From UHGV virus genome UHGV-1366609: DNA of 29,779 nucleotides; one strand, 5' to 3'. Source of the DNA: a virus. Made by a program: the position numbers and the translations under genes. A model generated the notes under the pieces. The model saw nothing but the letters and a program-made list of their open reading frames with translations. It had not been told where the DNA came from and ran no database searches. Shown here piece after piece: positions 2,122-25,212 of the stretch (positions are counted from its first letter, which is position 1; the number at the start of each line of letters is the position of its first letter).

Positions 2122-3292
2122 TCTCCACCGTTAACCCTGACAGGCGCGGGACCGACAGTTCGCTGACGATATCCGTCAGCGAAAAATGCAGGGAATCGAC
2201 AACCGGAAAAGTCTTGTGGATCTCGCGGCCCAGATTCGAAAAGGAATAGCGCGAATAGGGTTGCGTCTTTTTTACGTCGTAATTGGCGTTCTCGCGAAAT
2301 GCGCAACGAATCAGGTCGGTAATACCGGTTTTTAACCTGCTCAGATCTTCCGCTTCCATGTTTTCCACGCTTTTGACGTAGACCGTCACCGCCAGGGTGT
2401 GGCTGGTTTCTGGCATGGCATAACACTGCAGATCGTCACCGTGTCCGTGGTGGCCCTGGGTATTCACATAATCGTTAACCGCATCAATAAAGGGTTGCGA
2501 TGCTTCGCCGGTATCCAGTAACAGGTAAGCATTTGCCGTACCCGGCCCTCGTGGGGCATCGTGCAAAAAGTAAATGCGATCAACGCTCAGCCCCAGAACG
2601 CTGGCAATCATGCTCCGGTAGATAGCGTCAGAGTGGTAATTCCCCACCAGATTAAACTGGTTGCGGGTGCGGTCGCGTAGCTCGTCGTCGCTTTCTTCAT
2701 TCGCCCCCGGCGTAATCAGCCATTCGTCCTCATTAACCACGCTGGCGATCCCGGCCACTTCAACGGGTAAGATCCGGTAATAGCCCGGCGCAAGGTTGTA
2801 GCCGCTGCCGGTGCCAGTCGCTGTAACGGGAACAAGGCCACTTTCAACCCCGGCAGGCAGTGTCACGTCTTCATTCACGGCCAGTACATAAACCACGCCG
2901 TTAATGCGCTCCGTTTGCACCAGTGTTCCGGCAGGCACAACGACCGCATCCGCCGCATTCAGCTTATAGAACCGAAGCACGCCATCGGCAGCACTGGCCG
3001 CTTTAGGCACGATATGAACTGCCCAGGCCAACAGGCGCAACATGGGACCGGTGGCCGTCGCAACAAACATGTTGCGCAGAACCACATCGATCAGCGCCGC
3101 ACGCAGCCATAACACCGGCGTGGTGACAATCTTCGAAATCAGCCGCCAGAAAGGTGACATCCTCGACGTGTTTGTGACAAATCCTTCCGCCTGCACGGTG
3201 GCTTTAAATGCCGCCGTAATCTCGGCCTCTGTCGCGGGCATCCCGCTGTCATTCAGTACCTTTTCAAAATCAACGTCGGGTTTCTCAGTCAT
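2108..3292 (-). CDS. Baseplate J-like protein (gp6/gp47/P2 gpJ family)
   Basis: About 395 aa. Start chosen at ATG 3292..3290 (MTEKPDV...), which has AGAGG 7 nt upstream and overlaps the upstream stop as ATGACTGA. Position between the W-like gene and the I-like gene. Confidence 0.5.
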   Translation of the reverse strand: MTEKPDVDFEKVLNDSGMPATEAEITAAFKATVQAEGFVTNTSRMSPFWRLISKIVTTPVLWLRAALIDVVLRNMFVATATGPMLRLLAWAVHIVPKAASAADGVLRFYKLNAADAVVVPAGTLVQTERINGVVYVLAVNEDVTLPAGVESGLVPVTATGTGSGYNLAPGYYRILPVEVAGIASVVNEDEWLITPGANEESDDELRDRTRNQFNLVGNYHSDAIYRSMIASVLGLSVDRIYFLHDAPRGPGTANAYLLLDTGEASQPFIDAVNDYVNTQGHHGHGDDLQCYAMPETSHTLAVTVYVKSVENMEAEDLSRLKTGITDLIRCAFRENANYDVKKTQPYSRYSFSNLGREIHKTFPVVDSLHFSLTDIVSELSVPRLSGLTVEIEND

Positions 3293-3620
3293 AGTTAACC
3301 TCTGTACCGACAGGGCCGAAATCGTAGGTTTCCGCCGTGACATACAACCGCGAAAGGGTTTCTTCGGTGATCACTATGGTTCCTGGGACCAGACGTTCGT
3401 CGCTTTCCACCAATAAGGACAGTTGCGTCAGCACGTCACCGCGCATTGTCGGGCTGCGTTCACCGATCAGGCGGGTGGTGATACCGCTTTCCAGAATGCT
3501 GTGAATAATGTCCTGGGTGATGCTGTCGCGGTTATCGCAACGGCGCGGCTCGTTGCCGCTGTCCAGCGTGAAATCACCGTCAGTGATCAAAAGGTCGATG
3601 TATAACGGTTCGGTACTCAT
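3285..3620 (-). CDS. Small baseplate/tail protein, possibly gpW/gp25-like
   Basis: 111 aa; its ATG overlaps the tape-measure stop (ATGA at 3617..3620). Segment ITQDIIHSILESGITTRLIGER loosely resembles the gp25/gpW core IxQSIxxILxTxxGxR. Confidence 0.35.
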   Translation of the reverse strand: MSTEPLYIDLLITDGDFTLDSGNEPRRCDNRDSITQDIIHSILESGITTRLIGERSPTMRGDVLTQLSLLVESDERLVPGTIVITEETLSRLYVTAETYDFGPVGTEVNYD

Positions 3621-5731
3621 CCTGCGTTAAGCTCCTGCCATTCAGCCAACTGGGCCGGGGTGATTCCATTGGGGGCGTTGATGTAGGTATCGCCCCACGA
3701 TTTACGGTTATCAACGGCGGTTTTGCTGTCGGTTTTAACCTGACTCATCAGGCCGCCGCGTGGGATGTCTGCATTAATTCGGTTCCCCGTCAGCACTGAC
3801 GGGCTGTTCAGCTTCGACGAACCTGCAGCACTGTCAGGAATGACCGCGTTTGCCGGAACGGCAGCCGCTGCCGGTGGCGAAACGGTTTTCAGGTCGATGT
3901 TGACGCCGGGGATCTTGTTTAGCTTCTCCACAATCCAGTTATAGGTAGACGCAAAGGTATTTTTGAGGACGTCAAAAAGTTTGCTGAATACCCCGCCGAT
4001 GGTTTGTGCGAACCCTTCAAAGGTGGCAAGCGGGGAAAGACCGGCAAAGAAATCAACCACCACGGCCCAGCCGTCAGTGATGGACTGCCAGACCTGCGCA
4101 AACACCTGGCCCACCTGTTCAGCGACCGACATCACCCAGGCAAAAGCCGACGTATCCATGATTGCTGTCGCAAGTTCTTCCCAGTGGGTGATGACGTACC
4201 AGACCCCCACGGCCAGAAGCGCCAGCCCGGCAATGATCAGGGTGATCGGACTCATCAGGAGTTGCATTGCCGCCCCGGCAAACATGGTCGCCGCACCGTA
4301 AACCCGCATGGCAATGGCCCCGGCCTTTAACGCGATATTCCATGCAGCAAGCGCGATGCGGCAGACGCCCGTCCACAGCGCCAGTAATTTTGACTGGATC
4401 CACAATGCAGCCAGACCGATGCGCGTCGTCAGCAGGGACGGACGCAACAGGTTGAGCGTCCATAACAGTAGTTTCCATGCGCCGCCCAGTACCTTAGCGA
4501 TTGCAGCCAGCCCCGTCATGGTGAAGCCAAAGACCCCCATCACGATATTGACCGCCGCCCCGGCCAGCCCGAATGACAACACGCCCAGGGTGATGTACCC
4601 CAGCCAGCGGGCAATATTCGGGAACATATCCAGCCAGCGGGCAAATTTTGTCCCCACGTCGGCAATACGGTTCATCAGCGGTGACAGGATAGGGATCAGC
4701 GTGTTACCAATCGCCGCGCGAATGGCAAAGAATGTCGCTTTGATACGTTCCCACGGCTCGGCCATTCGTTCGGCCATTTCCTGGGCGCGTTTCATCCCGT
4801 CATTTCGGCCCAGTTCGGTGATGCTGCGGTTTAATTTATCCTGCTGACCGTACAGCTTTTTGATAACGTCAGCACCACCACCGAACGCGGCGTCCAGCGC
4901 CTGTTGTGCCTTGACGTTTCCTTCAATGCTCTGCCCGTATTTGCTCTGAAGTTTTTGCAGAATGTCACCCATCGGCAGCATTTTTCCGGTGGCATCGACA
5001 AAGCTCATACCCAGCTTTTCAGCGGCAGCCGGGGCGCTGCGTAAAAACTGCTCGTAGATCCCGCTGGCCTCAGTACCCAGCGTGCGCGAAAGCGTACCCA
5101 GGACGGCGAACTGTTCATCCAGGCTGACGCCAAAGTCAGCACCGGCGCTTTTCGTCCCCTCGATAAGCTCCTGCATGGTCTGCATTTTCACGCCGAAGTT
5201 TTGCACCATGTACGCCGTTTTCCCTGCCAGCTCTTCGGCAAAACGTACATGGCCCAGACTGGACAACTCCGCGTTGAAGCGTGACGCCATCGCGCCGATG
5301 TATTCGCCTGCCTCTTCGCCGCTGGCCTTGACGCCTGCGGCCAGGGTATTGGCCGCGATGGTGACGCGGGGCAGGTCCATATCGGACAGGCCCGCCATTG
5401 CGCCTTTCATCGCATAGCTTGACCGGACCACATCAACGGCCCCTTTGCCGTAGCGCATACTGAATCGCATGGCTTCACCGGACAGACGCTTCAGCGCATC
5501 CTCTGCCACGCCTTTGGAACCCACTTCTGCGAGTGCGGCGTTCATCTCATACGCCGGACCCACCACGCCCGCGATGGACTGCGCCACGCCCCAGACAGCC
5601 GCCGCACCGATCCCAATTTTTGTAAAAGACGCCTGCGATTTTTCGGCAAAGCCGGACAGCGAAGACTGGGCCGTCTTTAATGGCCGCGTCAGCTTATCGA
5701 TCAGGCTCAGGGTAAAATCCAGGTGACTCAT
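3617..5731 (-). CDS. Tail tape measure protein
   Basis: 704 aa, Ala/Gly-rich with helical N-terminal half and a block of hydrophobic segments (residues about 380-520). Lies directly downstream of the frameshifted chaperone gene. Confidence 0.85.
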   Translation of the reverse strand: MSHLDFTLSLIDKLTRPLKTAQSSLSGFAEKSQASFTKIGIGAAAVWGVAQSIAGVVGPAYEMNAALAEVGSKGVAEDALKRLSGEAMRFSMRYGKGAVDVVRSSYAMKGAMAGLSDMDLPRVTIAANTLAAGVKASGEEAGEYIGAMASRFNAELSSLGHVRFAEELAGKTAYMVQNFGVKMQTMQELIEGTKSAGADFGVSLDEQFAVLGTLSRTLGTEASGIYEQFLRSAPAAAEKLGMSFVDATGKMLPMGDILQKLQSKYGQSIEGNVKAQQALDAAFGGGADVIKKLYGQQDKLNRSITELGRNDGMKRAQEMAERMAEPWERIKATFFAIRAAIGNTLIPILSPLMNRIADVGTKFARWLDMFPNIARWLGYITLGVLSFGLAGAAVNIVMGVFGFTMTGLAAIAKVLGGAWKLLLWTLNLLRPSLLTTRIGLAALWIQSKLLALWTGVCRIALAAWNIALKAGAIAMRVYGAATMFAGAAMQLLMSPITLIIAGLALLAVGVWYVITHWEELATAIMDTSAFAWVMSVAEQVGQVFAQVWQSITDGWAVVVDFFAGLSPLATFEGFAQTIGGVFSKLFDVLKNTFASTYNWIVEKLNKIPGVNIDLKTVSPPAAAAVPANAVIPDSAAGSSKLNSPSVLTGNRINADIPRGGLMSQVKTDSKTAVDNRKSWGDTYINAPNGITPAQLAEWQELNAG

Positions 5732-5732
5732 A

Positions 5733-6190
5733 TCAGTTTCCGTTAAATGCGATTGCTATCCCTTCCGCCGTCTTACTGGCGCGGGTCTGGGCGAAATATT
5801 CATCCAGCCACAGGGCGCGGGCGATGCTTTCTTCGTCGTCGTCTTCGTGCGGGAGGTAATAGCGGCGCAGGGCAAGGTATTGCTCAAGCGCATTCTTGCG
5901 AATGGCCGCCACCCGCGCCGTCAGTTTTTTACTTCGATCTCAAGTTTGGGGGAGTAAATCTCGTTCACCTTCTCGACGATCTGCATTTCGCAACCCGGAT
6001 AATCTTCCATCAGCTTGTTGAGCGACTCTTTACACTCGGCATCAACAATGCGGCCCAGATACGTCACCATAGGGGCAACCTTATTGGTCATGGTCATTTC
6101 GTTAAGCAGGTTGTTGAACGCGGTTTTATTCGGCTCAAAGCTCAGATTTACGCCCGCCACGGTCATGGCGATTTTTTTCGGTTTACTCAT
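5733..6190 (-). CDS. Tail assembly chaperone, -1 frameshifted fusion (GT/E+E'-like) product
   Basis: Hand translation of the -1 frame from the slip site gives a 61-codon stop-free extension LTARVAAIRKNALEQYLALRRYYLPHEDDDEESIARALWLDEYFAQTRASKTAEGIAIAFNGN, ending TGA at 5735..5733, one nucleotide before the tape-measure ATG (5731..5729). Confidence 0.65.
5921..6190 (-). CDS. Tail assembly chaperone, short (G/E-like) product
   Basis: 89 aa ORF ending ...SPKLEIEVKN; its last codons form the slippery heptamer A AAA AAC directly before the stop. Confidence 0.7.
   Translation of the reverse strand: MSKPKKIAMTVAGVNLSFEPNKTAFNNLLNEMTMTNKVAPMVTYLGRIVDAECKESLNKLMEDYPGCEMQIVEKVNEIYSPKLEIEVKN
5924..5930 (-). 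other. Programmed -1 ribosomal frameshift slippery heptamer A AAA AAC
   Basis: Minus-strand sequence gtA AAA AAC TGA at the end of the chaperone ORF; canonical X XXY YYZ heptamer in the zero frame. Confidence 0.65.
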
Positions 6191-6483
6191 TGTGCTAATT
6201 CCTTACGTTGTCGAATGTTGCCCACCAGGGCGTTATGTCGGGCGGCGCAGTCGGTATACATCTGCCGGTAGGCTGTCAGCGCCGCGTCAAAGTCATTTCC
6301 GGTCGGTCCGGCCAGACGTGGCAGCGTGACCGGGCAAAGTGTCAGCTGGTTTTCCTGATAATTCTCGTTCGGCTTGATCTGCACTTTCGTTGAACAACCG
6401 GACGTAATCATCAGAAGCGCAAAGGTTGCTAAAAACCGGCTTAATGATTTCTGTGCGGATTTCCCGTTCCGTGTGTCTTTCAT
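6187..6483 (-). CDS. Outer-membrane spanin (Rz1/LysC-like lipoprotein), overlapped arrangement
   Basis: 98 aa. Basic N-region, hydrophobic stretch FLATFALLMITSG then Cys (lipobox-like). Mature part is short, Pro-rich with extra Cys. Starts inside the i-spanin gene in another frame and extends past its stop. Confidence 0.6.
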   Translation of the reverse strand: MKDTRNGKSAQKSLSRFLATFALLMITSGCSTKVQIKPNENYQENQLTLCPVTLPRLAGPTGNDFDAALTAYRQMYTDCAARHNALVGNIRQRKELAQ

Positions 6484-6676
6484 TGGCTTTTAGCCCCGCA
6501 AGTTTTGCTTCCAGCGCTTCGCCAGACTTTTGCGTTACTTCAACGACAATCTGGCGCGTTTGTTCTGCCGCTTCACTGGCAGCGAGTTTCAGCTTTGCGT
6601 CGTGCCAGTCATGCGCCTGCCAGCCCGCTGACATTGCAGCGGCCAGAATCAGCAAAAGACCCAGCAGATTGCGCAT
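6293..6676 (-). CDS. Inner-membrane spanin (Rz/LysB-like)
   Basis: 127 aa. N-terminal transmembrane segment LLGLLLILAAAMSAGW followed by a charged, Ala/Glu/Lys-rich helical region. Confidence 0.6.
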   Translation of the reverse strand: MRNLLGLLLILAAAMSAGWQAHDWHDAKLKLAASEAAEQTRQIVVEVTQKSGEALEAKLAGLKANERHTEREIRTEIIKPVFSNLCASDDYVRLFNESADQAERELSGKPADTLPGHAATSGRTDRK

Positions 6677-7014
6677 CAGCGAACCCCGTTATGCTCAAGA
6701 CTGAAATGGTTGCCGTCCGGCTTACTGAAACGGCCACCCCACGATCCGCCGATAGATTCCCAGTATTCGCCCAGGGGGCGATATGCGGCGCTGTCGGTCT
6801 GGTATTCGCCGTTAATAAACAGGTTAAAATCCACCGCAAGGCGCTGGGTATGCAGGCTGTTAGTAATGCCGCTCCCTTTTTTTGCGTTAAGCGCGGCCTG
6901 TTCCGGCGTGCGGTACGCTTCGCCAAACGTCAGGCGATAGCCTTTTTCCTGGGCAAAATGAATCAGGCTGGCGATCATCACCGTAAAAAGTTGCTGTTTT
7001 TCACTCAGTTTCAT
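6676..7014 (-). CDS. Endolysin, zinc metallopeptidase of the M15/LAS type
   Basis: 112 aa. SLHTQRLAVDF (His...Asp) and C-terminal GNHFSLEH (His) match the H-x6-D ... H zinc-ligand pattern of small M15 endolysins. Flanked by holin and spanins. Confidence 0.65.
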   Translation of the reverse strand: MKLSEKQQLFTVMIASLIHFAQEKGYRLTFGEAYRTPEQAALNAKKGSGITNSLHTQRLAVDFNLFINGEYQTDSAAYRPLGEYWESIGGSWGGRFSKPDGNHFSLEHNGVR

Positions 7015-7312
7015 TGCGCTTGCTCCCCCATCGCTTGATATACATGTCCAGGCAGCGCTTTAGCCCCGCCTCAATAAACGCACTTCCCAGAATGCCCAGG
7101 GCGCAGGCCAGCCCAATGACGACCAGTTCCGGCATATCGGGGAATTTCAGCAGCGGGATTGCGGCCAGCGGTGCGACCGCAGATCCCAGAATCATCCGCC
7201 CGACCAGCAGACGGGTTGTGATTCGCTCATTGCTGACCATCAGTTGCCCCAGGCCAATCACGGCCCCGATAAGCAACAGCTTTTCAAGCAGTGACGTTTC
7301 TCCGTTCATCAT
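7001..7312 (-). CDS. Putative holin
   Basis: 103 aa with three hydrophobic segments and a charged C-terminal tail KRCLDMYIKRWGSKRNETE. Sits immediately upstream of the endolysin and overlaps it. Confidence 0.5.
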   Translation of the reverse strand: MMNGETSLLEKLLLIGAVIGLGQLMVSNERITTRLLVGRMILGSAVAPLAAIPLLKFPDMPELVVIGLACALGILGSAFIEAGLKRCLDMYIKRWGSKRNETE

Positions 7313-7316
7313 CGTG

Positions 7317-7772
7317 TCAGCCTTTCAAATCGCGAGTGTCGCGGGCTGACAGGTACGGCACGCCGTCAATCGCGACAAAGTCCGGGCTTGTCACCATGAA
7401 TTTAATTTTCTTCGTGGTTTTGCTGGCCTCGTTGGGGTTGATGTTGACGATGTCGGACAGCGTCGGAACGCAGCCAAACACCTCGATTTTTTCTTCGTCG
7501 TCCCCCGCATTGGCGTAGAACAAAAAGTCCTTTGCCGGAATGGCCCGCCAGGAACCTGCGGCGCGGGCCACGGCGGTAAACTTTTTAAAGTTCTGGGAAT
7601 CGACTTCGACTTCCACATCCGCCGAAACTGACCCTTTCGTGTGGCCGTTTGGGATGCCACGCGACTGCGCAACCGCGCTGTTATCCGTGATGGTGACGGT
7701 GGCGTTTTCGACGTGAATCATGATGGCGTCGTAGTTCACATCGAACGATCCGCCGCTGATACGTTCAGTCAT
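7317..7772 (-). CDS. Putative tail tube protein
   Basis: 151 aa ORF directly downstream of the sheath-sized gene and upstream of the chaperone/tape-measure block. No resemblance to P2 FII noticed. Confidence 0.5.
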   Translation of the reverse strand: MTERISGGSFDVNYDAIMIHVENATVTITDNSAVAQSRGIPNGHTKGSVSADVEVEVDSQNFKKFTAVARAAGSWRAIPAKDFLFYANAGDDEEKIEVFGCVPTLSDIVNINPNEASKTTKKIKFMVTSPDFVAIDGVPYLSARDTRDLKG

Positions 7773-7775
7773 TGA

Positions 7776-8918
7776 TTAGCTCTCCAGTGAGGTGTCCAGT
7801 TCGATGCTGACGCTGATTTCTTTCGCGCTCTCATACGGTCGAACCACAAGGTAAATCTGTACCGCTTCGCTACTGGTCCAGGTGATGGTGATGTCACCGT
7901 CTTTTGGCGGCTTCACTTCGCCCGGAAATTCGACGCCATTGATCTGGGTTGAAATCGCCATTTCACGCAGCGGCTTGCCGAAATAGGTTTCATGCGCGGC
8001 GATACTGCCCGGTGTGCTGTTCAGTGAACGATCGGCAATTTTTGGGATTGCACGCAGACGGACGCGGCGGGAGGCTTTATCAACCACGCGCACGTTTTCA
8101 ATCACCTGATAATCACCGCCTTCAACGTCCAGGGTGCGACCGTCGGCCCAGTAGATGCCGTCATAATCGTGATACCACATCGGCACGCTGTAGCGGTTCG
8201 CCTGCAAAGACTGCAGCACGGCCAGATCAATTTCGGCTCCCGTCCCGTCAACCGGCAGGCCGTCGCGTCCCAGCGCGGTGACTGCGCCGGTTGCAACGCG
8301 GGCGGGGCTGTCTGCCACCGTCACCGAACGGTTACACAAGCGACCGACCAGGACGCCGGGTTCATTGCCCCACAGACGCGGGACCAGTTGCACCCCAGGC
8401 GATGCAATACCGTCCTGGAGTGTTGCCAGGCGCGTCACATAGTCGCTCCACGCTTCGTCCTTTTCCGGCCCGCCCACAGCAAGGGCAAACCAGATAAAAC
8501 GCCCAAAACTGGCCTGTAAGGTGACGCGCATTTCCGTTGCCCGGTTAATGGTGGCCGCGTCGGCGGTATCAAATGCCAGGACAACCCCTTCGACGGATGC
8601 CACGCTCTGGGCCTGTTTGACCGCGTTCATCCAGTCCTCGTCTGGTTTGTAGCCCTCGGCTCCCTTGTCTGGCTCTGCCAGCACATGCACGTAAGCAAAC
8701 CAGTTCTGACCCGCGTTATTGGCCGCTGCGGCCACCATATTTTTTAACGGGCTGTCTTTGTCGCCCAGGGCTTTATCCAGATCGCTGCCGGTATTCAGCG
8801 ACTGGGTTTTCCCGATGTTAGTGTCGCCGTAACCCACAAAGAGGATGACGCGCTCGACGTCGTTCGTTGTGCCGTTGAAGCGGTTTTTCTGACTGACGTT
8901 GACATTCGTCCAGGTCAT
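7776..8918 (-). CDS. Putative contractile tail sheath protein
   Basis: 380 aa ORF in sheath-then-tube order, following the S-like completion gene. Sequence does not resemble P2 FI as I recall it, so the assignment rests on size and position. Confidence 0.5.
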   Translation of the reverse strand: MTWTNVNVSQKNRFNGTTNDVERVILFVGYGDTNIGKTQSLNTGSDLDKALGDKDSPLKNMVAAAANNAGQNWFAYVHVLAEPDKGAEGYKPDEDWMNAVKQAQSVASVEGVVLAFDTADAATINRATEMRVTLQASFGRFIWFALAVGGPEKDEAWSDYVTRLATLQDGIASPGVQLVPRLWGNEPGVLVGRLCNRSVTVADSPARVATGAVTALGRDGLPVDGTGAEIDLAVLQSLQANRYSVPMWYHDYDGIYWADGRTLDVEGGDYQVIENVRVVDKASRRVRLRAIPKIADRSLNSTPGSIAAHETYFGKPLREMAISTQINGVEFPGEVKPPKDGDITITWTSSEAVQIYLVVRPYESAKEISVSIELDTSLES

Positions 8919-8920
8919 TT

Positions 8921-9616
8921 TTACCCCCTGATTTGCTGCGCGTTGACGTCCCAGCCGAAGCCGATTGCCTGCATTTGCCGCGCAATAATTTGGTTAAATT
9001 CCTCGTTGCTCACCCCCAGAAAAACGCGCCCAGGAATATCAATGGTCCATGTGCGTTTTGAGGGTGTGCCTTTCAGTTTTCGAATCAGTAATCCCGCCTG
9101 GGCCATGCTCATGGTTTCCATGATTTGCCTGCTGGACGGTTTAACCCAGCGCTTGCCCTTGCGGGTTTTGTAGCCCAGCGCCCGCAGGCGCTTGGCCTGT
9201 CTCGGTAGCGCGGGCTTGTCAGCCTGCGGCTTGCGCGGGGCGTTACTGGCTTTCATCTGGATCCGTGCGCCATCCTGCTGGACCGCACCGACCAGACCCG
9301 CCGCAATGGGCTTCGTCCCGTTCCGGTAGTTCCCGCCCTTGAGGTAAATTCTTACCCCCTGAATCTCCGGCATTTCACGCACGGCCAGTAGCTTGGGCAG
9401 CCCTTTTAACATCTTCCCTTTGCCACGCTTGCGCGGCTCCCACGGCGTACCGTCCGGGGCCGCCTGCTGGCGCTGGTGACGTTTTGCCGCTGTGACAATG
9501 CCCAGCTTTGCAATACGCCATAAAAGGCGCTGGCGCTTGCGCGGGGGAAGGTCAGCTTTTGCCAGCGTTTCCCGCATCTGCTTTAGCTGTTGCTGGTTCA
9601 GTTCCCCACGGATCAC
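8921..9616 (-). CDS. Virion morphogenesis / tail completion protein (P2 gpS / Mu G-like)
   Basis: 231 aa, very basic. Block QQAAPDGTPWEPRKRGKGKML resembles the PDGxxWxP signature I associate with the gpS family. Confidence 0.55.
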   Translation of the reverse strand: MIRGELNQQQLKQMRETLAKADLPPRKRQRLLWRIAKLGIVTAAKRHQRQQAAPDGTPWEPRKRGKGKMLKGLPKLLAVREMPEIQGVRIYLKGGNYRNGTKPIAAGLVGAVQQDGARIQMKASNAPRKPQADKPALPRQAKRLRALGYKTRKGKRWVKPSSRQIMETMSMAQAGLLIRKLKGTPSKRTWTIDIPGRVFLGVSNEEFNQIIARQMQAIGFGWDVNAQQIRG

Positions 9617-10089
9617 GACGCGTCACCACGCTGGACAATAAATTCCAGTTGCGACGCCTCCCAGATTTCGGGGTTTACGATGTCCCATTTCTTACCTTTG
9701 AAGGGGATCGGCCCTTTTTCCACTTCACGCAGGACCAGCGGATCAACCAGCGGGACAACCACATCCAGAATGCATGACCCTTCGTCGTCGAACTCCGGGT
9801 CCACGGTGGGATCGGCTAACTTCAGCTCGTCGCGCAGCTCGTTGGCGAACTCATCCACCCAGGCCAGCACCAGGGCATAAATCAGCCCCGGCGAATATTT
9901 GCGGTAGGGGAAGTCATCCCACGACAAACGGGCGGTATAAGTCAGCACCCCGATCCGGCGCTGGTTGTTTCCCATCGCTTTGGCGCTGCGTACCAGCTCG
10001 CAATCCTCCATTGAACTGGAAAACATCTGCATGGCATCAGGCGGCAGGTTTGCCGTAATAAACGCCGTCAGGCTTTCAAGCTGGCTCAT
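9613..10089 (-). CDS. Head-tail joining / tail completion protein (R-position), function uncertain
   Basis: 158 aa acidic ORF, ATGA-coupled between the L-like and S-like genes. No specific motif recognised. Confidence 0.35.
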   Translation of the reverse strand: MSQLESLTAFITANLPPDAMQMFSSSMEDCELVRSAKAMGNNQRRIGVLTYTARLSWDDFPYRKYSPGLIYALVLAWVDEFANELRDELKLADPTVDPEFDDEGSCILDVVVPLVDPLVLREVEKGPIPFKGKKWDIVNPEIWEASQLEFIVQRGDAS

Positions 10090-10559
10090 ATCAGATGCAC
10101 CCCCACGCGTGGTTGTCGCAGCATGTTTCGCATCACGTTGGCCGCCTCGGCCAGCAGGCTGGCGCGGGTGTCCTGGCTTTCCTGCCCCGGATGCGATTCA
10201 CGTCGCCCGATGGTGGCAAACTCCCCCAGCAAATCGGCCTTTGCGCGGGCGTAGACCGCTTTTTTGTACTGGGCTGTTAACTGGGTTTCATCGCCCATCT
10301 TTGCACCCGGTACATCTGCGGCCCGCTCGCAGGCTTTCGCGTTCCAGTACGTCACCACGTCGGCCAGCGCGTCGTTTACCTCCGCAATAGCGGCCAGCAG
10401 GGCCACGCCCGCGGTTTCTGGCGGCAGATCAGCGGGCAACGTGCGCACCTTCTGAAACTCGGCCAGATCGAGATCGGGCCAGAATGTCACGCCGTTGGTG
10501 ATCGCTGTTGGCGTCACCGTCACCGGCTTACCGCTGATACTGAAACTTGGGCCACTCAT
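10086..10559 (-). CDS. L: Head completion/stabilisation protein (P2 gpL-like)
   Basis: Start placed at ATG 10559..10557 (MSGPSFSISGK...) with GAGGTG 7 nt upstream; the longer track ORF would run through the intergenic palindrome. Position directly after the M gene; contains QYKKAVYARAKADLLGEF. Confidence 0.55.
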   Translation of the reverse strand: MSGPSFSISGKPVTVTPTAITNGVTFWPDLDLAEFQKVRTLPADLPPETAGVALLAAIAEVNDALADVVTYWNAKACERAADVPGAKMGDETQLTAQYKKAVYARAKADLLGEFATIGRRESHPGQESQDTRASLLAEAANVMRNMLRQPRVGVHLI

Positions 10560-10610
10560 TGACACACCTCGGTTTTGCAATAGAAACGGGCTAACGGGTT
10601 CCACGGCCAA

Positions 10611-10624
10611 CAACCATATGGTTG
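10611..10624. promoter_or_regulatory. Perfect 14-bp palindrome CAACCATATGGTTG in the M-L intergenic gap
   Basis: Read directly; identical to its reverse complement. Followed by a small GC hairpin TCCCG-GCTTG-CGGGA at 10643..10657. Confidence 0.4.
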
Positions 10625-10661
10625 ATGCCTCCCCCGCGCCCGTCCCGGCTTGCGGGAGTCG

Positions 10662-11366
10662 TTAAAGCTGGGTCAGGCCGTTAATCCGGGCGCGGATTTT
10701 TTCGCGCATGGTCTTAACTCCGACGCTTTTGTTGTACGCCGCCGCCTGGGCCAGAAGGGCGTCGGCCTGTTCCAGCGTATTCACATCATCCACGGCAGTG
10801 GCACGCGGCTGCCCCTTCTCGTCGCGCAGCAGATAAAGACCGGCGAACTTGAACCACTTCGCGTTAATGTCTTCGTGCAAACGCCACTTTTCGCGGATGT
10901 TTTCAAACGTGCGGCTGAAATAGGGTTCGATGCTGTGACCGGCTTCCGCCTGCATGATCGCCCACTCCAGCACCGTGTCGGCCACAAAGGCGGGCAGGTT
11001 GCTTTTGAAGTTCTCCGGCGTGGCCTGGCTCTCACTGATAGCCACGTCTGCCCAGTCCAGCGCCTTGCCCATTTCCCCCGTATCGAACAACCAGATCACG
11101 CAGTAAACCAGGGCCGGATTGGCAAAGCGGGCATCACCGGCGAGGTATGCTTCAACGGTCGGCATCCAGCGCGGCAGAAGAACATCGCGCTTCAGTTCGA
11201 TGCGGTCTTCCGTGCGCTGTACGCTGCGAAGCATTGCGACATCTTTTTCCAGTTCCAGCTTTTGCAGGTGGAAGCTGACCGGCGACGCGGTCAGGGCTTC
11301 GCGGTTATCCAGCGCCTTTGCGGCTTTCACGCGTGCTCGGTGTCGTTGACACAGGGTCATAGCCAT
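10662..11366 (-). CDS. M: Terminase small (endonuclease) subunit, P2 gpM-like
   Basis: 234 aa, directly downstream of the major capsid gene in the O-N-M-L order. Confidence 0.7.
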   Translation of the reverse strand: MAMTLCQRHRARVKAAKALDNREALTASPVSFHLQKLELEKDVAMLRSVQRTEDRIELKRDVLLPRWMPTVEAYLAGDARFANPALVYCVIWLFDTGEMGKALDWADVAISESQATPENFKSNLPAFVADTVLEWAIMQAEAGHSIEPYFSRTFENIREKWRLHEDINAKWFKFAGLYLLRDEKGQPRATAVDDVNTLEQADALLAQAAAYNKSVGVKTMREKIRARINGLTQL

Positions 11367-11368
11367 TT

Positions 11369-12400
11369 TTACGCGCCTCCCTCCGGTGCTACCGGATCGG
11401 CTGCAAGGGTGATCTTGTCGAACGCTGCATACAGCTCGTCATGCTCGACGGCGTAACCTTCCATGCGCAGATAGTTGTTTTCAAACTGCTTGCGGTCGTC
11501 GCTCCAGTCGGCTTTACGCTTACGGGTTCCCGACTGCGTATAAATATGCAGGTTGCTCAGGGTGGTAATGATGAGGCGACCTTCTGGCATAAATGGCGGG
11601 GTGTACACCTGCTTGCCAGCAATCTGACGGTTCATCAGCTGCGCCGCGACTTTTTCAGTTGGACGGTCAACCATATTCATCATGGTTGTGGCGTCCATCC
11701 CAATCAGGTCACCGGAAATCAGAACGCAGAGGTTCGGGTCATTGCGGTAATGCTCCAGAATGCAGGTATGCAGCAGGTCAGTGACTGCCGCATCCAGCGA
11801 CACATAATCTGCGCCTGCACCGCCCAGCGTGACCTTATCGGTGATGATTTGGCCTGGCGTACGCGTTTTGACGATCTGGTGCCAGCCGATGTTAACGTCT
11901 TCGCCATTTGGGTTGTTTTCCGGGTCGGTAGTCTCGGCAACACTCACGCCGTTAAACGCCACGCGCAGCATATCCAGCGCAAATTGCTCATTGCTGAATG
12001 CCTGAATCAGCTGGAAGAATTCATCTTCACTGCCGGAGTTTGCCCAGTTGGTCAGCGTGTCATAGTCCAGGAAGGAACCGGAATCCGTTTCCGCGAGAGC
12101 GTAAGTATTACCGCTGACGCCCAGGGAACGGGAAAAACGGCCGCCTTTCTTACGCCCGGTATAAATACCCGGCTTGCCGGTACTGATAACCTGGCCGGTG
12201 GTCTGCTGGACATCTTTCACATTCACCAGGCGCAGGAATTCGGAAGACTCCAGCAGCGCCTGACGCAGCAAGGTTTCTTTCGGTGGCGTGATAGCAAACA
12301 TCTTTGAGGTGTCGCGCACGCCATAAGATTTAGCCAGGGCTGCGGTAAAACTTTGCAGCATTCCCTCGGCGCGGGCTGATAGTTGTTGCGTATGATGCAT
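11369..12400 (-). CDS. N: Major capsid protein, P2 gpN-like
   Basis: 343 aa. C-terminal region GGAGADYVSLDAAVTDLL...LITTLSNLHIY...RMEGYAVEHDEL parallels the P2 gpN C-terminus as I recall it. Confidence 0.8.
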   Translation of the reverse strand: MHHTQQLSARAEGMLQSFTAALAKSYGVRDTSKMFAITPPKETLLRQALLESSEFLRLVNVKDVQQTTGQVISTGKPGIYTGRKKGGRFSRSLGVSGNTYALAETDSGSFLDYDTLTNWANSGSEDEFFQLIQAFSNEQFALDMLRVAFNGVSVAETTDPENNPNGEDVNIGWHQIVKTRTPGQIITDKVTLGGAGADYVSLDAAVTDLLHTCILEHYRNDPNLCVLISGDLIGMDATTMMNMVDRPTEKVAAQLMNRQIAGKQVYTPPFMPEGRLIITTLSNLHIYTQSGTRKRKADWSDDRKQFENNYLRMEGYAVEHDELYAAFDKITLAADPVAPEGGA

Positions 12401-12423
12401 TTTATTTTCCTTAAAACAGGCGC

Positions 12424-13485
12424 TTAAACTAATTCACGCGGTTTTTTGTCGCCCGCTGGCGCATTACCAGGACGACGCGTTCCGTTACTTTCCATCGCTG
12501 ACAACTTGGTCATGACGGTGGTCAGTTGTTCGGACAGGTCGTTCAGCGGGTTACCGGCCTGACGCCCTGCGGAAAGCTCACGGCGGCGGCTGCGGGTACG
12601 CTGACGACGTGCCGGGGCTGCGCTGAATTTTTTCATCGCTTTTGCCAGGTTGGCTTTGGCGACGCTGAATTCTTCCGCTTTGACTTCGTCTTCCGGGTTC
12701 TCTGCAACTTCCTCCGCCAGATCTGCCACTTCGGCGGCAGCGTCTGCGATTTCGTCAGCAATGACGGCCACTTCGTCGGCGGCCTGTTCCGGCGTATCAA
12801 CTTTTTCAGCGTCACCCGCTGCGGCGTCTTTACCGCTTTTAACTAAATCCAGTAATTGCTGGATGAGGGCTTTTAACTCTTCCATTTTTTCTCCGTCGCC
12901 CTCGGTGGGCTTATCAGTGTTTGGCTCTGGCGTTGGCGTAAAATCTTTACTGGCCGAAAATAAACGCGACCAGAAAGAATCTTTTTTATCCGGTTTACTT
13001 GTCTGTAATTTTCCCAAGCTGAATGTTTCCAGACTCCCGCGCTCGGCGTCCTTTTCTTCACCGGCTAAAACGAATTTAAGTTTTTCCGTTCCCAGACTTG
13101 CCGGAATATCAGTCACGGCCAGCCCGAAAAGATATTCACGACCGCTTCCTGCAAAATCAGTGACAAACTCGGCTGACGTAAATAACTTTTGCCCCATACG
13201 GTTGGCATCAATTAAAAATTGATTCGGGATTAACTGGGCATATAACTTCGTGACGTCACCTTCCGTTTCCACTTTCAGCGCGTCCACTTCACCCAGGTTG
13301 CAGGTAAATTCACGCTCGCCGATATCGTATTGCGGGTGGTGCGGCCAAATCATGGCGGTGTAGGTTTTGCGGGAGTAGGTTTCTGCCGCATCAATCAACC
13401 ATTGCGGTTCAATGGTGCGACCGTCCACAGCCTGTCCAGATGTGGCAATACATAGCCAATCCGTGCGGTAATGAGATTGCGGCAT
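12424..13485 (-). CDS. O: Capsid scaffolding protein, P2 gpO-like
   Basis: 353 aa. N-terminal blocks AVDGRTIEPQWLIDAAETY and YLFGLAVTDIPASLGTEKLKF match P2 gpO motifs as recalled; acidic coiled-coil-like C-terminal half. Confidence 0.8.
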   Translation of the reverse strand: MPQSHYRTDWLCIATSGQAVDGRTIEPQWLIDAAETYSRKTYTAMIWPHHPQYDIGEREFTCNLGEVDALKVETEGDVTKLYAQLIPNQFLIDANRMGQKLFTSAEFVTDFAGSGREYLFGLAVTDIPASLGTEKLKFVLAGEEKDAERGSLETFSLGKLQTSKPDKKDSFWSRLFSASKDFTPTPEPNTDKPTEGDGEKMEELKALIQQLLDLVKSGKDAAAGDAEKVDTPEQAADEVAVIADEIADAAAEVADLAEEVAENPEDEVKAEEFSVAKANLAKAMKKFSAAPARRQRTRSRRRELSAGRQAGNPLNDLSEQLTTVMTKLSAMESNGTRRPGNAPAGDKKPRELV

Positions 13486-13662
13486 AACTGACCTTTAATA
13501 ATGAATTTAAATAACAATGATTCGTTCGTGGTGGTCAGTATTGCGAATTGGTTAAAACAGCGCGACCGCTTTATTTCTTATGCATTCGGTTATAAAGAGA
13601 TAGCCACTTTTTACCGATATTTAATTATCAATTCTGCAAAATAATCCCGCCATAATAGCCGC
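13486..13662. promoter_or_regulatory. Divergent late promoter region between scaffold (O) and terminase (P) genes
   Basis: 177-bp AT-rich gap between back-to-back gene starts, the position of the divergent late promoters in P2. No TGT-N12-ACA element found by eye. Confidence 0.5.
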
Positions 13663-15474
13663 ATGGCTAAATATTCCGATGAATTAAAAGAAGCGGCCCG
13701 CACGCTTTATATAAAAAGCTGGTCGCCGAAAGATATTGCGCAGGAACTGAATATTCCACCGCGTACAATTTACCACTGGGCTGACGTCGGGAAGTGGGCA
13801 TCACTGCTGCCTGTCGAATCGGTGGAAAATGTCATCGCCCGCCGTATCGACCAGCTCACCCGCCGCGAGAAAAAAACATCGCTGGAACTGGAGGAACTGC
13901 GCGATCTGATTGCTCACCATGTGAAACTCATGGCGCAGCGCAACAAGCACGCCGAAAAGCTGGCAGAAATTCAGGCCCAGAAAGCGGCTTATGATGGTGA
14001 AGGGTACTGCCTCAGCAGCGCAGGCGGGGAACCAGGGGAAAGAAAGCGCCGGTATAAGAAAAACGACGTTTCCGGTATTACAGCGGAAATGCTCGACACC
14101 TGGGCGCGGGAACATCTCTTCGAGTACCAGTTGCACTGTCGCGAACATAAAGGCGAAGACTGGCGCTTCATTCTGAAAAGCCGACAGGTCGGCATGACCT
14201 ATTATTTCGCCTGGGAGGCATTCGAAGATGCTGTCATTACCGGCGATAACCAGGTCTTTTTCTCTGCAAGCCGCTCCCAGTCTGAAATCTTCCGTGAATA
14301 CATCGTCCAGATCGCCCAGAACCATTTCGACGTGACGCTGACGGGTAAAAATATCCGCCTCAGCAACGGCGCAATACTGCGCTTTTTGTCCACGAACGCC
14401 AGCACCGCGCAGGGCTTTAACGGCCACCTGTATGGCGATGAGGTTTTCTGGATCCCGAAATTCACGCGCCTGCACGAAGTTGCCAGCGCAATGGCAACGC
14501 ATAACAAATACCGAACGACCTACTTTTCGACGCCCAGCGCGAAAACGCACCAGGCTTACCCGGTATGGACTGGCGAAGCCTGGCGCGGGGACGACCCGAA
14601 ACGCAAAGGTGTGAAGTTCCCGAACGACAGCGAAATGCGCCAGGGTATTCTTTGCCCGGACCAGATCTGGCGCTACATCATCACGATGGAAGACGCTATC
14701 GAAGGTGGCCTCGGTGCGCTTGTCGATATTGAACGGCTGCGCAACAAATACAGCCCGACCGCGTTCGCCATGCTCTACATGTGCCAGTTTGTTGACAGTA
14801 AGGACGCGGTGTTCAAGTTCTCCGCGCTTGTCGGCTGCGAAGTGGACCGGGCCACATGGGGCGACTTTGATCTGACCGCTGCGCGGCCCTTCGGCAATCG
14901 CGAAGTATGGGCAGGCTTTGACCCGTCACGATCCGGCGACAACTCCACCTTTGTTTTAATCGCGCCCCCCATAGAGGACGGCGAGCGCTTCCGCGTGCTG
15001 GCCGTCTGGCAATGGCAGGGCTTTAACTTCAGTTGGCAGGCCGACCAGATAAAGCAACTTATGCGCCGCTTTAACATCACTTACATCGGGATCGATACAA
15101 CCGGCATTGGTAAGGGCGTTTATGACCTGGTCAGCAAGTTTGCACCGCGCGAAGCCACACCCATTCTTTACAGCGTCGAAAGCAAAAACCGTCTGGTAAT
15201 GAAGATGATCGACGTTGTCGAGCGTAAACGCATCGAATGGGCAAAAGATGCCGTAGACGAAACGAACAAAGAGCGCGTCGAAATTCCGGCCAGCTTTATG
15301 GCTATCCGGCGCACGACAACCAACAGCGGCAACGCGCTGACGTTTGTTGCCGAACGTTCAGACGCGACCGGCCATGCAGATGTTTTCTTCGCTATCTCGC
15401 ACGCCGTAATTAACGAACCTATCGATCACGAATATGACCGCCCATCGGGCTGGTACTTTGGGAAAGCAGCATGA
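13663..15474 (+). CDS. P: Terminase large (ATPase) subunit, P2 gpP-like
   Basis: 603 aa, divergent from O as in P2; stop overlaps the portal start (ATGA). Confidence 0.85.
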   Translation: MAKYSDELKEAARTLYIKSWSPKDIAQELNIPPRTIYHWADVGKWASLLPVESVENVIARRIDQLTRREKKTSLELEELRDLIAHHVKLMAQRNKHAEKLAEIQAQKAAYDGEGYCLSSAGGEPGERKRRYKKNDVSGITAEMLDTWAREHLFEYQLHCREHKGEDWRFILKSRQVGMTYYFAWEAFEDAVITGDNQVFFSASRSQSEIFREYIVQIAQNHFDVTLTGKNIRLSNGAILRFLSTNASTAQGFNGHLYGDEVFWIPKFTRLHEVASAMATHNKYRTTYFSTPSAKTHQAYPVWTGEAWRGDDPKRKGVKFPNDSEMRQGILCPDQIWRYIITMEDAIEGGLGALVDIERLRNKYSPTAFAMLYMCQFVDSKDAVFKFSALVGCEVDRATWGDFDLTAARPFGNREVWAGFDPSRSGDNSTFVLIAPPIEDGERFRVLAVWQWQGFNFSWQADQIKQLMRRFNITYIGIDTTGIGKGVYDLVSKFAPREATPILYSVESKNRLVMKMIDVVERKRIEWAKDAVDETNKERVEIPASFMAIRRTTTNSGNALTFVAERSDATGHADVFFAISHAVINEPIDHEYDRPSGWYFGKAA

Positions 15475-16532
15475 CAAAGAAACAGCGTAATAATAAAAAA
15501 TTCAGGTCCATGACCGGCAGCAAGGTTGAAACCTTCACGCCAGGGCGCGGAAGCGTGATCACATTTGGCGAACCCGAACCCATCCTTACGACCGGCACTG
15601 ATTATCACAATATCTGGTATGACAATGAATATGACCACTGGCGACTCCCGATTGATCGCCTGGCGCTGGCCCAGTTGCCGAACCTTAACGGCCAGCACGG
15701 TGGGGTACTGTATGCGCGGCGCAATATGGTAGCAGGTGGCTACATCGGCGGCGGCCTGACGCCTGATCAGGTCGAACAGGCTGTCTTTGATTACCTGCTG
15801 TTTGGTGACGTTGCTATCCTGAAAATTCGTAACGTATTCGGGGAAGTGATCGACCTGCTGCCGCTGCCGTCACTGTATCTGCGCTGCCGGAAAGACGGCT
15901 CTTTTGCTGTTCTGCAGGAAGGGCCGGCGCTTATCTATGACCCGGAAGACATCGTCTTCTTTAAAATGTACGACCCGCGCCAGCAGGTTTACGGCCTGCC
16001 GGACTATATCGGCGGGATTCATTCGGCCTTACTTAACAGCGAAGCAACCATCTTCCGACGCCGCTATTACAACAACGGGGCGCATATGGGCTTTATCCTC
16101 TATACCAGCGATCCAAACCTCACGCTGGAAATGGAGAACGAGATTAAAGATAAAATTGCTCAGTCAAAAGGCCTGGGCAACTTCCGCAATATGTTTATCA
16201 ACATCCCCAAAGGCGACCCGGACGGGGTCAAAATCTTGCCTGTGGGTGAAGTGAGCGCGAAAGATGAATTCGCCAGCATTAAGGGAATCACCGCGCAGGA
16301 TATTTTTACCGCGCACCGCTTCCCCGCAGGGCTTGCGGGCATCATCCCGACCAACGGCGCGATAATGGGCGACCCTGAAAAGGCCCGCGCGACCTATCGG
16401 AAAGATGAAGTTATCCCGTTGCAGCGCAAACTAATGCAGGGCGTGAACAACGACCCGGAGATCCCGCCGCACCTGCACCTGAAATTTGAGATTGAAACAC
16501 CGGTAAACAGCGCCGAAAAGGGCGAAAAATGA
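15471..16532 (+). CDS. Q: Portal protein, P2 gpQ-like
   Basis: 353 aa, immediately downstream of and coupled to the terminase large subunit; size and position as P2 gpQ. Confidence 0.85.
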   Translation: MTKKQRNNKKFRSMTGSKVETFTPGRGSVITFGEPEPILTTGTDYHNIWYDNEYDHWRLPIDRLALAQLPNLNGQHGGVLYARRNMVAGGYIGGGLTPDQVEQAVFDYLLFGDVAILKIRNVFGEVIDLLPLPSLYLRCRKDGSFAVLQEGPALIYDPEDIVFFKMYDPRQQVYGLPDYIGGIHSALLNSEATIFRRRYYNNGAHMGFILYTSDPNLTLEMENEIKDKIAQSKGLGNFRNMFINIPKGDPDGVKILPVGEVSAKDEFASIKGITAQDIFTAHRFPAGLAGIIPTNGAIMGDPEKARATYRKDEVIPLQRKLMQGVNNDPEIPPHLHLKFEIETPVNSAEKGEK

Positions 16533-16855
16533 ACGAGATTAAGTTAAAATCATCCCTATTGTTAGCAATGGCGTGCGGGATGGTGAACATGCGAGTTTTT
16601 AAAATTAAATGTCCTGAATGCGGCTCACCGGCCATCATTCGCAAATCTGACTGGAAAGACAAAAAACTGGCTGATTTATACTGCGCCTGCACGGAAGTTG
16701 AATGCGGCCACACCTTTGTTTTTAACGCCCAGTTTTCACATACCCTCAGCCCCAGCGGGCTGACCGGCAACAAGCTGGTTAAATTCCTGATTGACCGACT
16801 CAAGCCGGAAGAACGTCAATTCGCGCTGGACCTGCTCAACGGCCAGACGGCATAA
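16529..16855 (+). CDS. ogr: Ogr/Delta-family zinc-finger late transcription activator
   Basis: CPEC-x22-C-x4-C-GHTF matches the P2 Ogr pattern CPLC-x22-C-x4-C-SATF; downstream SPSG echoes Ogr PLPSG. True start may be the internal Met (MRVFKIKCPEC, about 16589). Confidence 0.7.
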   Translation: MNEIKLKSSLLLAMACGMVNMRVFKIKCPECGSPAIIRKSDWKDKKLADLYCACTEVECGHTFVFNAQFSHTLSPSGLTGNKLVKFLIDRLKPEERQFALDLLNGQTA

Positions 16856-16860
16856 ACGAA

Positions 16861-16886
16861 GCCCGCATAAAGCGGGCTTTTTTATT
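16861..16886 (+). terminator. Rho-independent terminator, probably bidirectional, between convergent ogr-like and methyltransferase genes
   Basis: GCCCGC-ATAAA-GCGGGC hairpin followed by TTTTTTATT, 5 nt after the ogr-like stop. Confidence 0.7.
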
Positions 16887-20427: not shown

Positions 20428-20435
20428 GGCGGCCC

Positions 20436-20702
20436 TCAAAACGGCAATTCATCGTCAGTGCAATCTGGATCAATGGCGAGCGTAACCGGGCTACCGCACT
20501 TAAAACTTAGCGCCTCTGAGAAGGTGGAAAAAGCAGCGGTATCGCGAACACAAACGCCGTCATAAAAAGCGTCGAACTCAACCAACCAGATGTCACCCAT
20601 TTGCCAACGGTCATGGATACGCTCAACGACCATCATCGCGGTGACATCTCCGTCCGTAGTGGCCGGATCAAAGCCGATGAATTCCCTTGCGGTCAGGCTC
20701 AT
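20436..20702 (-). CDS. Small highly acidic early protein with SSB-tip-like C-terminus (function unknown)
   Basis: 88 aa, about 17 Asp/Glu versus 5 Arg/Lys; C-terminus ...DPDCTDDELPF confirmed codon by codon. Its stop sits 8 nt before the A start. Confidence 0.5.
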   Translation of the reverse strand: MSLTAREFIGFDPATTDGDVTAMMVVERIHDRWQMGDIWLVEFDAFYDGVCVRDTAAFSTFSEALSFKCGSPVTLAIDPDCTDDELPF

Positions 20703-25199: not shown

Positions 25200-25212
25200 A
25201 TACAAAGACAAA

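Follow-up and report, generated by a model that had tools for sequence, protein, structure and literature searches.

Lysis genes that lie inside a tail operon may be a recent acquisition of a single phage or a regular feature of its lineage. This question is raised by positions 6187-7312 of the viral genome UHGV-1366609, the whole sequence of which (29,779 nucleotides) is the window analyzed here. A sequence-only reading of this DNA had described the region as a complete lysis cassette carried inside an unusual, mosaic tail module. The results presented below indicate that it is, very probably, the only lysis cassette of a phage of the HP1 type, and that it occupies a slot between the tail tube and tail assembly chaperone genes which is conserved in this lineage.

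The window represents a complete, circularly permuted genome (approx. 30 kb), the ends of which close as a circle. The phage is an HP1-type temperate myovirus (Peduoviridae, Irrigatiovirus) placed near Salmonella phage SI7. Its nucleotide identity to the Salmonella phages SI7, SW3 and SW5 of the same genus amounts to 93-97% (97.3% over the 6.1 kb of positions 3600-9700, 93% across the greater part of the genome). The HP1-type late order is recognizable in the DUF2586 sheath gene, the Phage_HP1_Orf24 tube gene, the placement of the lysis genes, a head module of P2 type (phrog_73, 70, 74, 68 and the large terminase) and a gene for an Ogr/Delta-type late activator (PF04606 Ogr_Delta, positions 16529-16855). 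The unassigned early and accessory ORFs yielded nothing relevant in PADLOC or Pfam, and a literature search on phages SI7, SW3 and SW5 retrieved only unrelated papers.

The cassette spans exactly 6187-7312, with every gene on the minus strand, and it is located between the tube and chaperone genes precisely where it had been placed (Table 1). Pfam and PHROG family assignments support the identities originally proposed for the four ORFs (holin, M15 endolysin and an i-spanin/o-spanin pair) and rule out the possibility that these are structural tail proteins. No NCBIfam model matched the holin, endolysin, i-spanin, tube or sheath; the o-spanin alone gave a match, to P2_Rz1, and this was below the threshold.

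Table 1. Predicted features of the lysis cassette and of the adjacent tail genes, with the matches on which the assignments are based.
Feature	Coordinates	Strand	Evidence
Tail sheath, HP1 orf23 type (DUF2586)	7776..8918	-	PF10758, E 2.4e-132; phrog_907 tail sheath, E 5e-161
Tail tube, HP1 orf24 type	7317..7772	-	PF10772 Phage_HP1_Orf24, E 2.6e-51; phrog_1182
Class I holin, 103 aa, P2 gpY homologue	7001..7312	-	PF04550, 74.5 bits (cut-off 25); phrog_175 holin, E 2.6e-34
Soluble M15 zinc peptidase endolysin, 112 aa	6676..7014	-	PF13539 Peptidase_M15_4, 40.1 bits (cut-off 25); endolysin PHROGs 1768, 465, 2649
i-spanin, 127 aa	6293..6676	-	phrog_1152 Rz-like spanin, E 1.2e-36
o-spanin, 98 aa, predicted outer-membrane lipoprotein	6187..6483	-	phrog_2425, E 1.9e-29; phrog_456 Rz-like spanin, E 5e-5
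Tail assembly chaperone, 89 aa	5921..6190	-	PF10963 Phage_TAC_10, E 7.9e-30
Candidate -1 frameshift heptamer A AAA AAC	5924..5930	-	read from sequence
DUF6890 ORF, -1 frame of the chaperone	5733..5912	-	PF21830, E 2.6e-22; phrog_7050
Tail tape measure protein	3617..5731	-	PF10145; phrog_28, E 7e-86

It had also been suggested that stop and start codons overlap at all of the junctions. This holds true within the cassette and at its border with the chaperone gene, whereas the tube and holin genes are separated by a gap (the holin start is located 4 nt past the tube stop codon). The holin and endolysin genes overlap by 14 nt, the endolysin stop and the i-spanin start share 1 nt within the sequence TGATG, and the o-spanin stop and the chaperone start share the 4 nt ATGA. 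The o-spanin gene starts (position 6483) 193 nt into the i-spanin gene (start at 6676), in the +1 frame, and it ends (6187) 106 nt beyond the i-spanin stop (6293).

The relatives of the holin (38% identical to P2 Y, E 1e-17) are found in P2-type peduoviruses. A simple Kyte-Doolittle hydropathy scan revealed three hydrophobic segments in this protein (residues approx. 8-28, 35-57 and 62-84), and its C-terminus is charged (KRCLDMYIKRWGSKRNETE).

The same scan detected no hydrophobic segment in the endolysin, which suggests that it has neither a SAR nor a signal sequence. The protein carries the pattern expected of M15 peptidases, in which the zinc ligands form the motif H-x6-D ... H and a catalytic Asp precedes the last His by three residues; the residues concerned (H55, D62, D100 and H103) are invariant across four orthologues. 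A phmmer search of the PDB sequences gave no meaningful match, and a profile built from the four orthologous sequences was needed to reach the Ply500 and T5 endolysins. This profile matched the Ply500 L-Ala-D-Glu peptidase (2VO9) with an E value of 0.002, and SLH55..D62 and D100..H103 were aligned to SNH..D and D..H of the latter, the motifs with its zinc ligands. The AlphaFold model generated from the single sequence was of only moderate confidence (pLDDT 68). When it was submitted to Foldseek, the top match was the T5 L-Ala-D-Glu peptidase (2MXZ), a weak one (E 0.036), followed by ChiX, VanY and LdcB, none of them at E<=0.001. The 112-aa peptidase is probably an L-alanyl-D-glutamate endopeptidase.

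The i-spanin, with a single hydrophobic segment (residues 1-21 in the hydropathy scan), is composed of an N-terminal membrane anchor and a helical periplasmic domain, and hhalign aligned it over its full length, as a distant match, with P2 LysB (E 1.4e-4, probability approx. 50%). A PROSITE-style pattern identified a lipobox (TFALLMITSGC, LLMITSG/C30) in the o-spanin, with Ser as the +2 residue after Cys30. The cysteines C30, C50 and C79 of this protein are invariant in the corresponding ORFs of phages ESSI2_ev129 (ev129), vB_YenM_324 (Yen324) and HP1, as well as in P2 LysC. The hhalign comparison with LysC was as distant as that of the partner protein with LysB (E 1.6e-4, probability approx. 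50%), and the score obtained with the LysC family models PF23793 and NF038368 (P2_Rz1) was 16 bits against a cut-off of 27. Since the o-spanin falls below these cut-offs and the similarity is only distant, the predicted pair is filed as an overlapped two-component spanin and not as a member of the LysC family. This overlapped architecture has been described previously, and o-spanins commonly escape annotation (PMC10612066, PMC6139136).

PHROG scans of the other ORFs of at least 90 aa, together with the inspection of small ORFs in the gaps, revealed no second, canonical lysis cassette elsewhere in the genome. The cassette is probably transcribed within a long late morphogenetic operon, as judged from the overlapping junctions, the gap of 4 nt and the absence of promoter- or terminator-like sites on its coding strand. 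The scans of positions 3000-13700 detected zero promoter-like sites on the minus strand and only two terminator-like sites on this strand, both of them outside the cassette. Half-sites of the P2 Ogr type (TGT-N12-ACA) occurred at chance frequency (7 observed versus 5.5 expected), with none in the 13486-13662 intergenic region. The half-site at 7442-7459, within the tube gene, was considered as a lysis promoter and rejected because of this chance frequency.

By homology, the P2 Y-like, three-segment holin would build up in the inner membrane, trigger and form large holes, through which the soluble M15 zinc peptidase, devoid of an export signal, could escape and cut the stem peptides of peptidoglycan, most likely at L-Ala-D-Glu. 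The complex of the i-spanin (anchored in the inner membrane) and the o-spanin (an outer-membrane lipoprotein) would then remove the outer membrane. We infer the lysis activity, the size of the holin holes, the bond specificity of the peptidase and the lipoylation of the o-spanin from the protein sequences.

The products of the genes flanking the cassette resemble those of HP1 and related phages. The sheath is 53% identical to HP1 orf23, the tube 51-53% identical to its counterparts in HP1, K139, phi3, phiO18P and ev129, the chaperone 37-55% identical to those of HP1, K139, phiO18P and ev129, and the tape measure protein 30% identical to HP1 orf27. As had been noted previously, the sheath and tube are unlike P2 FI/FII (no BLASTP match at E<=1). 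In the chaperone gene, which immediately precedes the tape measure gene, a slippery heptamer is combined with an open -1 extension: A AAA AAC (5930-5924) is located just before the chaperone stop, and from 5939 to 5733 the -1 frame remains open (DUF6890 ORF). The heptamer is found before the chaperone stop in about six or seven relatives (SI7, HP1, K139, ev129, phiO18P and Yen324), in which the -1 frame also stays open into the DUF6890 ORF, and in the record of Pseudoalteromonas phage ACA1 the equivalent of this ORF is annotated as a programmed frameshift product. It is probable that the DUF6890 ORF encodes a frameshift extension of the chaperone, analogous to P2 E+E'.

The synteny comparison with HP1, which the sequence-only reading had itself proposed, revealed that the arrangement is typical of the lineage and not a peculiarity of this phage. 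The order sheath, tube, lysis genes, chaperone and tape measure occurs in phages of Haemophilus (HP1), Vibrio (K139), Pseudomonas (phi3), Aeromonas (phiO18P), Escherichia (ev129) and Yersinia (Yen324), as well as in SI7. It is not universal, as Pseudoalteromonas phage ACA1 has no cassette in the slot. In phages SI7 (RefSeq NC_049460), SW3 (MK972713) and SW5 (MK972714) the gene order is identical to that of the window, with a holin, an endolysin and an Rz-like spanin between a "tail protein" (the tube) and a putative chaperone. What sets the window apart from these phages is the fibre tip and assembly gene, together with the integrase region and some of the early region. HP1 shows the corresponding series orf23 (sheath), orf24 (tube), hol, lys, orf25, orf26 (chaperone) and orf27 (tape measure), a sheath and tube 52-53% identical to those of the window and the A AAA AAC site, and its orf25 is likewise followed by an overlapped lipoprotein ORF. 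The HP1 lytic cassette (hol, lys and orf25) is reported to have been described by Esposito et al. in 1996. Its lysis genes were tested functionally in 2020, and hol and lys were stated to be flanked by the tail tube gene ORF24 on one side and by ORF25 on the other (PMC7312051). The placement of the predicted lysis genes between the tube and chaperone genes is thus the conserved, already known order of the HP1 branch.

The content of the slot is far more variable. HP1 encodes a pinholin and a signal-arrest-release muramidase (PMC7312051), in contrast to the three-segment P2 Y-like holin and soluble M15 peptidase of the window, and no BLASTP similarity was detectable between the holins, endolysins and spanins of the two phages. 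In a BLASTP comparison with HP1-type phages and P2, the lysis proteins matched only those of ev129 and Yen324, plus P2 Y in the case of the holin, whereas the flanking sheath, tube and chaperone retain 37-61% identity across the HP1-type phages compared. Yen324 and the Escherichia/Cronobacter ESSI-2 group, which represent different genera (sheath approx. 61% identical), possess a cassette of the same four genes at the same site (endolysin 78-81%, holin 44%, i-spanin 42-47% and o-spanin 45-60% identical); the genes of Yen324 are annotated as holin, metallopeptidase, I-spanin and O-spanin. The slots of K139, phi3 and phiO18P also contain a gene for a DksA-like zinc finger protein, and that of phiO18P an N6-methyltransferase gene.

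With P2 the window shares an overlapped, +1-frame i-/o-spanin pair (lysB/lysC), the Cys pattern and weak profile matches. The M15 peptidase gave no BLASTP match to the P2 endolysin K, its relatives being encoded by 48-kb Vibrio phages and by Pseudomonas 119X-like, Aeromonas and Microcystis phages, and no LysA homologue was found in the window. The position given for the P2 lysis genes in the sequence-only reading proved to be accurate: in the order L-X-Y-K-lysA-lysB-lysC-R-S the cassette lies between X (after L) and R/S.

A rival view is that a P2-type lysis block was recently inserted into a foreign tail module of this phage, creating an unusual arrangement. In its favour, the holin is related to P2 Y and the spanins are distantly similar to LysB and LysC, the sheath and tube do not match P2 FI/FII, and the lysis proteins are far less conserved across the HP1-type phages than the flanking tail genes. 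However, lysis genes occupy this slot in HP1, K139, phi3, phiO18P, ev129 and Yen324, which span seven genera and sheath identities as low as 42%; the position is therefore much older than this phage. Only a replacement of content within the slot is supported, and we regard a recent insertion as very improbable. Judged by these comparisons, the mosaicism is that of the content of the slot and not of its existence: the slot is old and common to at least seven genera, and its contents have been exchanged.

It is still less probable, to the point of being barely credible, that the M15 peptidase acts, instead of as the endolysin, as a tail lysin of the virion in cell-wall penetration at infection. 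Domains of the M15 type and related peptidase domains are present in certain tail-associated lysins, and such a role would account for the location of the gene inside a block of tail genes. However, the protein is a free-standing 112-aa catalytic domain, its gene overlaps the holin gene and has a stop codon that overlaps the i-spanin start, and its PHROG matches are endolysin families. Moreover, its relatives in unrelated phages carry endolysin annotations and lie outside tail modules, and no other muralytic gene that could act as the endolysin was found in the genome.

The contrast between the lysis proteins of HP1 and those of the window raises a broader idea, namely that the tube-chaperone junction is a long-lived exchange slot in which whole lysis strategies are swapped in situ, and that the ATGA link between the o-spanin and chaperone genes might couple the dosage of the lysis genes to the assembly of tails. 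We consider this rather doubtful; the evidence reaches as far as variation of content, and not to a dedicated recombination mechanism or functional coupling.

Beyond correct annotation the importance of the locus is slight, as the HP1-type order is textbook knowledge and is annotated in near-identical deposited phages. The overlapped o-spanin is nevertheless still missed or truncated by gene callers in SI7, ev129, Yen324 and HP1: it is unannotated in the SI7 RefSeq record, and in Yen324 and the ESSI-2 group the annotated o-spanins begin downstream of the signal peptide. The probable frameshift product of the chaperone gene is likewise entered, as in the SI7 record, as a separate hypothetical protein. 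The locus illustrates neatly how a genomic slot can be conserved while the predicted lysis genes within it appear to have been exchanged between phage lineages.

The four lysis genes that the sequence-only reading had placed at 6187-7312 lie at exactly these coordinates, and the Pfam and PHROG family assignments agree with the identities it proposed (holin, M15 endolysin, i-spanin and o-spanin). The same assignments rule out the possibility that these ORFs encode structural tail proteins. As read from the sequence, the overlap of stop and start codons, claimed for all of the genes, holds within the cassette and into the chaperone gene (14 nt for holin/endolysin, 1 nt, TGATG, for endolysin/i-spanin, and ATGA for o-spanin/chaperone), but the tube and holin genes are separated by a 4-nt gap. 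The o-spanin gene, in the +1 frame relative to the i-spanin gene, starts 193 nt inside the latter and extends 106 nt past its stop, an arrangement known as 'overlapped', with P2 lysB/lysC as the type example (PMC6139136).

Genes of the tail region containing the lysis cassette (every gene of the region is on the minus strand)
Gene	Coordinates	Family assignment
Sheath	8918-7776	DUF2586, E 2.4e-132; phrog_907
Tube	7772-7317	Phage_HP1_Orf24, E 2.6e-51
Holin	7312-7001	PF04550, 74.5 bits (cut-off 25); phrog_175, E 2.6e-34
Endolysin	7014-6676	Peptidase_M15_4, 40.1 bits (cut-off 25); endolysin PHROGs
i-spanin	6676-6293	phrog_1152 Rz-like spanin, E 1.2e-36
o-spanin	6483-6187	phrog_2425, E 1.9e-29; phrog_456 Rz-like spanin, E 5e-5
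Tail assembly chaperone	6190-5921	Phage_TAC_10, E 7.9e-30
DUF6890 ORF	5912-5733	PF21830, E 2.6e-22
Tape measure	5731-3617	PF10145; phrog_28

Salmonella phages SI7, SW3 and SW5 (genus Irrigatiovirus of the Peduoviridae) share 97.3% identity with segment 3600-9700, and the whole window is a circular permutation of SI7, with 93-94% identity across most of its length. The tail fibre ORF (1-1510) is interrupted at position 1, resumes at 29779 and stops at 29742; the rejoined ORF has 515 aa, and the RBS and start of the fibre assembly gene directly follow its stop. As the ends thus join cleanly into a circle, the sequence represents a complete genome in circularly permuted form, opened within the fibre gene. 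When every other ORF of at least 90 aa was scanned against PHROGs, and the small ORFs in unassigned gaps were inspected, this complete genome yielded no additional lysis cassette.

Matches to SI7 were absent or poor at 1-500, 29304-29779, 20418-21378 and 24141-25878. These segments comprise the tip of the fibre and its assembly gene, some of the early region, and the 3' part of the integrase gene plus a low-GC (42-48%) stretch; PADLOC detected no defence match. The early-region segment contains a 151-aa ORF (20926-21381) without a family, and the low-GC stretch holds a zinc-ribbon ORF (25311-25820). This 30-kb genome carries two DNA methyltransferase genes (phrog_56; 16882-17601 and 21381-22346), while SI7 is annotated with three, and ORF 22417-22812 matches phrog_7428.

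The holin, 38% identical to P2 gpY, contains three hydrophobic segments and ends in a basic C-terminus. The endolysin contains no hydrophobic segment, and is therefore predicted to lack a SAR or signal sequence. Its motifs H55-x6-D62 and D100-x2-H103 are invariant among orthologues and align with their counterparts in the Ply500 L-alanyl-D-glutamate peptidase of a Listeria phage (2VO9, E 0.002), the next match being the T5 endolysin (2MXZ, E 0.066). A fold search with a mediocre single-sequence structure model (pLDDT 68) placed the T5 endolysin, ChiX, VanY and LdcB near the top, none of them significant. Within the phage collection, relatives of the holin are P2-type peduoviruses of Escherichia, Yersinia, Salmonella, Klebsiella and Burkholderia; those of the endolysin are mostly unrelated ~48-kb Vibrio phages, together with Pseudomonas 119X-like, Aeromonas and Microcystis phages.

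The combination of a three-segment holin and an endolysin that lacks a signal sequence is consistent with the canonical large-hole pathway: the holin would accumulate, trigger and free the cytoplasmic M15 peptidase, and disruption of the outer membrane by the spanin complex would follow. In contrast, hol and lys of HP1 were found by experiment to encode a pinholin and a SAR endolysin (PMC7312051).

The i-spanin has a single N-terminal hydrophobic anchor. At the N-terminus of the o-spanin, a basic n-region and a short hydrophobic core precede the lipobox ITSG|C30, and the +2 residue is Ser; the o-spanin residues C30, C50 and C79 are invariant in the ORFs of ev129 (Escherichia), Yen324 (Yersinia) and HP1 (Haemophilus) and in P2 LysC. 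Profiles of the two spanins matched P2 LysC and LysB over their full length but weakly (E ~1.5e-4, probability ~50%), and the o-spanin fell below the cut-off of the curated LysC models (16 bits vs 27); it was therefore classified as an overlapped two-component spanin and not a member of the LysC family.

The SI7 RefSeq annotation omits the o-spanin, whose equivalent lies at about 6220-6515 of SI7, and in ev129 (6919-7218) and Yen324 (6878-7219) its start is annotated too far downstream, past the signal peptide. The HP1 counterpart, a lipoprotein ORF at 8710-8976 with a textbook lipobox (MLLAC) and three Cys positions in common with P2 LysC, is unannotated in U24159; the 2020 study of HP1 lysis found no spanin-like features in ORF25 (PMC7312051).

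No promoter- or terminator-like site was found on the coding strand in the cassette, which, together with its tight packing among tail genes, suggests that it is most likely co-transcribed with the late morphogenetic genes. The genome encodes a late activator of the Ogr/Delta type at 16529-16855. A perfect TGT-N12-ACA, shaped like the activator site of P2 Ogr, is present at 7442-7459, inside the tube gene and ~130 nt before the holin gene begins; as the motif occurs in the window at chance frequency (7 observed vs 5.5 expected) and the head-gene intergenic region contains none, it was not counted as a promoter.

In the chaperone gene, the last codons are formed by A AAA AAC (5924-5930, minus strand), a canonical slippery heptamer for -1 frameshifting, and from 5939 the -1 frame continues without a stop into the DUF6890 ORF (to 5733), which SI7 lists as a separate hypothetical protein. 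The heptamer also precedes the chaperone stop in SI7, HP1, K139, ESSI2_ev129, phiO18P and vB_YenM_324. Its conservation and the open frame point to a predicted G/GT-type chaperone-DUF6890 frameshift product.

The position of the P2 lysis genes (gene order L, X, Y, K, lysA, lysB, lysC, R, S), which the sequence-only reading correctly placed between L and R/S, contrasts with the tube-chaperone placement found here, and BLASTP of the sheath and tube gave no match to P2 FI/FII, as that reading had also claimed. Its view of the tail module as mosaic is not borne out, since the order sheath, tube, lysis genes, chaperone, tape measure recurs in six relatives: Haemophilus HP1 (orf23, orf24, hol, lys, orf25, orf26, orf27), Vibrio K139, Escherichia ESSI2_ev129, Pseudomonas phi3, Aeromonas phiO18P and Yersinia vB_YenM_324 (annotated explicitly with holin, metallopeptidase, I-spanin and O-spanin). 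In HP1, hol and lys were described between the tail tube gene ORF24 and ORF25 (PMC7312051). The phages with this order represent seven genera, with sheath identity to the window as low as 42%. Pseudoalteromonas ACA phages have been reported as exceptions (PMC10612066); the ACA1 record has only one hypothetical gene in this interval. The lack of similarity to FI/FII reflects an HP1-type tail module and not a recent mosaic event, and the placement of the cassette is not unusual.

Among the sampled relatives, sheath, tube and chaperone show 37-61% identity throughout, whereas matches to the lysis proteins are confined to the ESSI-2/Yen324 group, plus P2 Y for the holin. Within the tube-chaperone slot, a DksA/TraR-like zinc-finger gene precedes the holin gene in K139 (6083-6292), phi3 (6069-6278) and phiO18P (6079-6288), and phiO18P has an N6-methyltransferase gene between holin and lysin (6651-7727); the window and HP1 have neither. 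These comparisons indicate that the position of the slot is conserved while its content has been exchanged. The arrangement itself is already known, and near-identical genomes already carry its annotation: SI7 RefSeq lists a holin, an endolysin and an Rz-like spanin between the tube and a putative chaperone.
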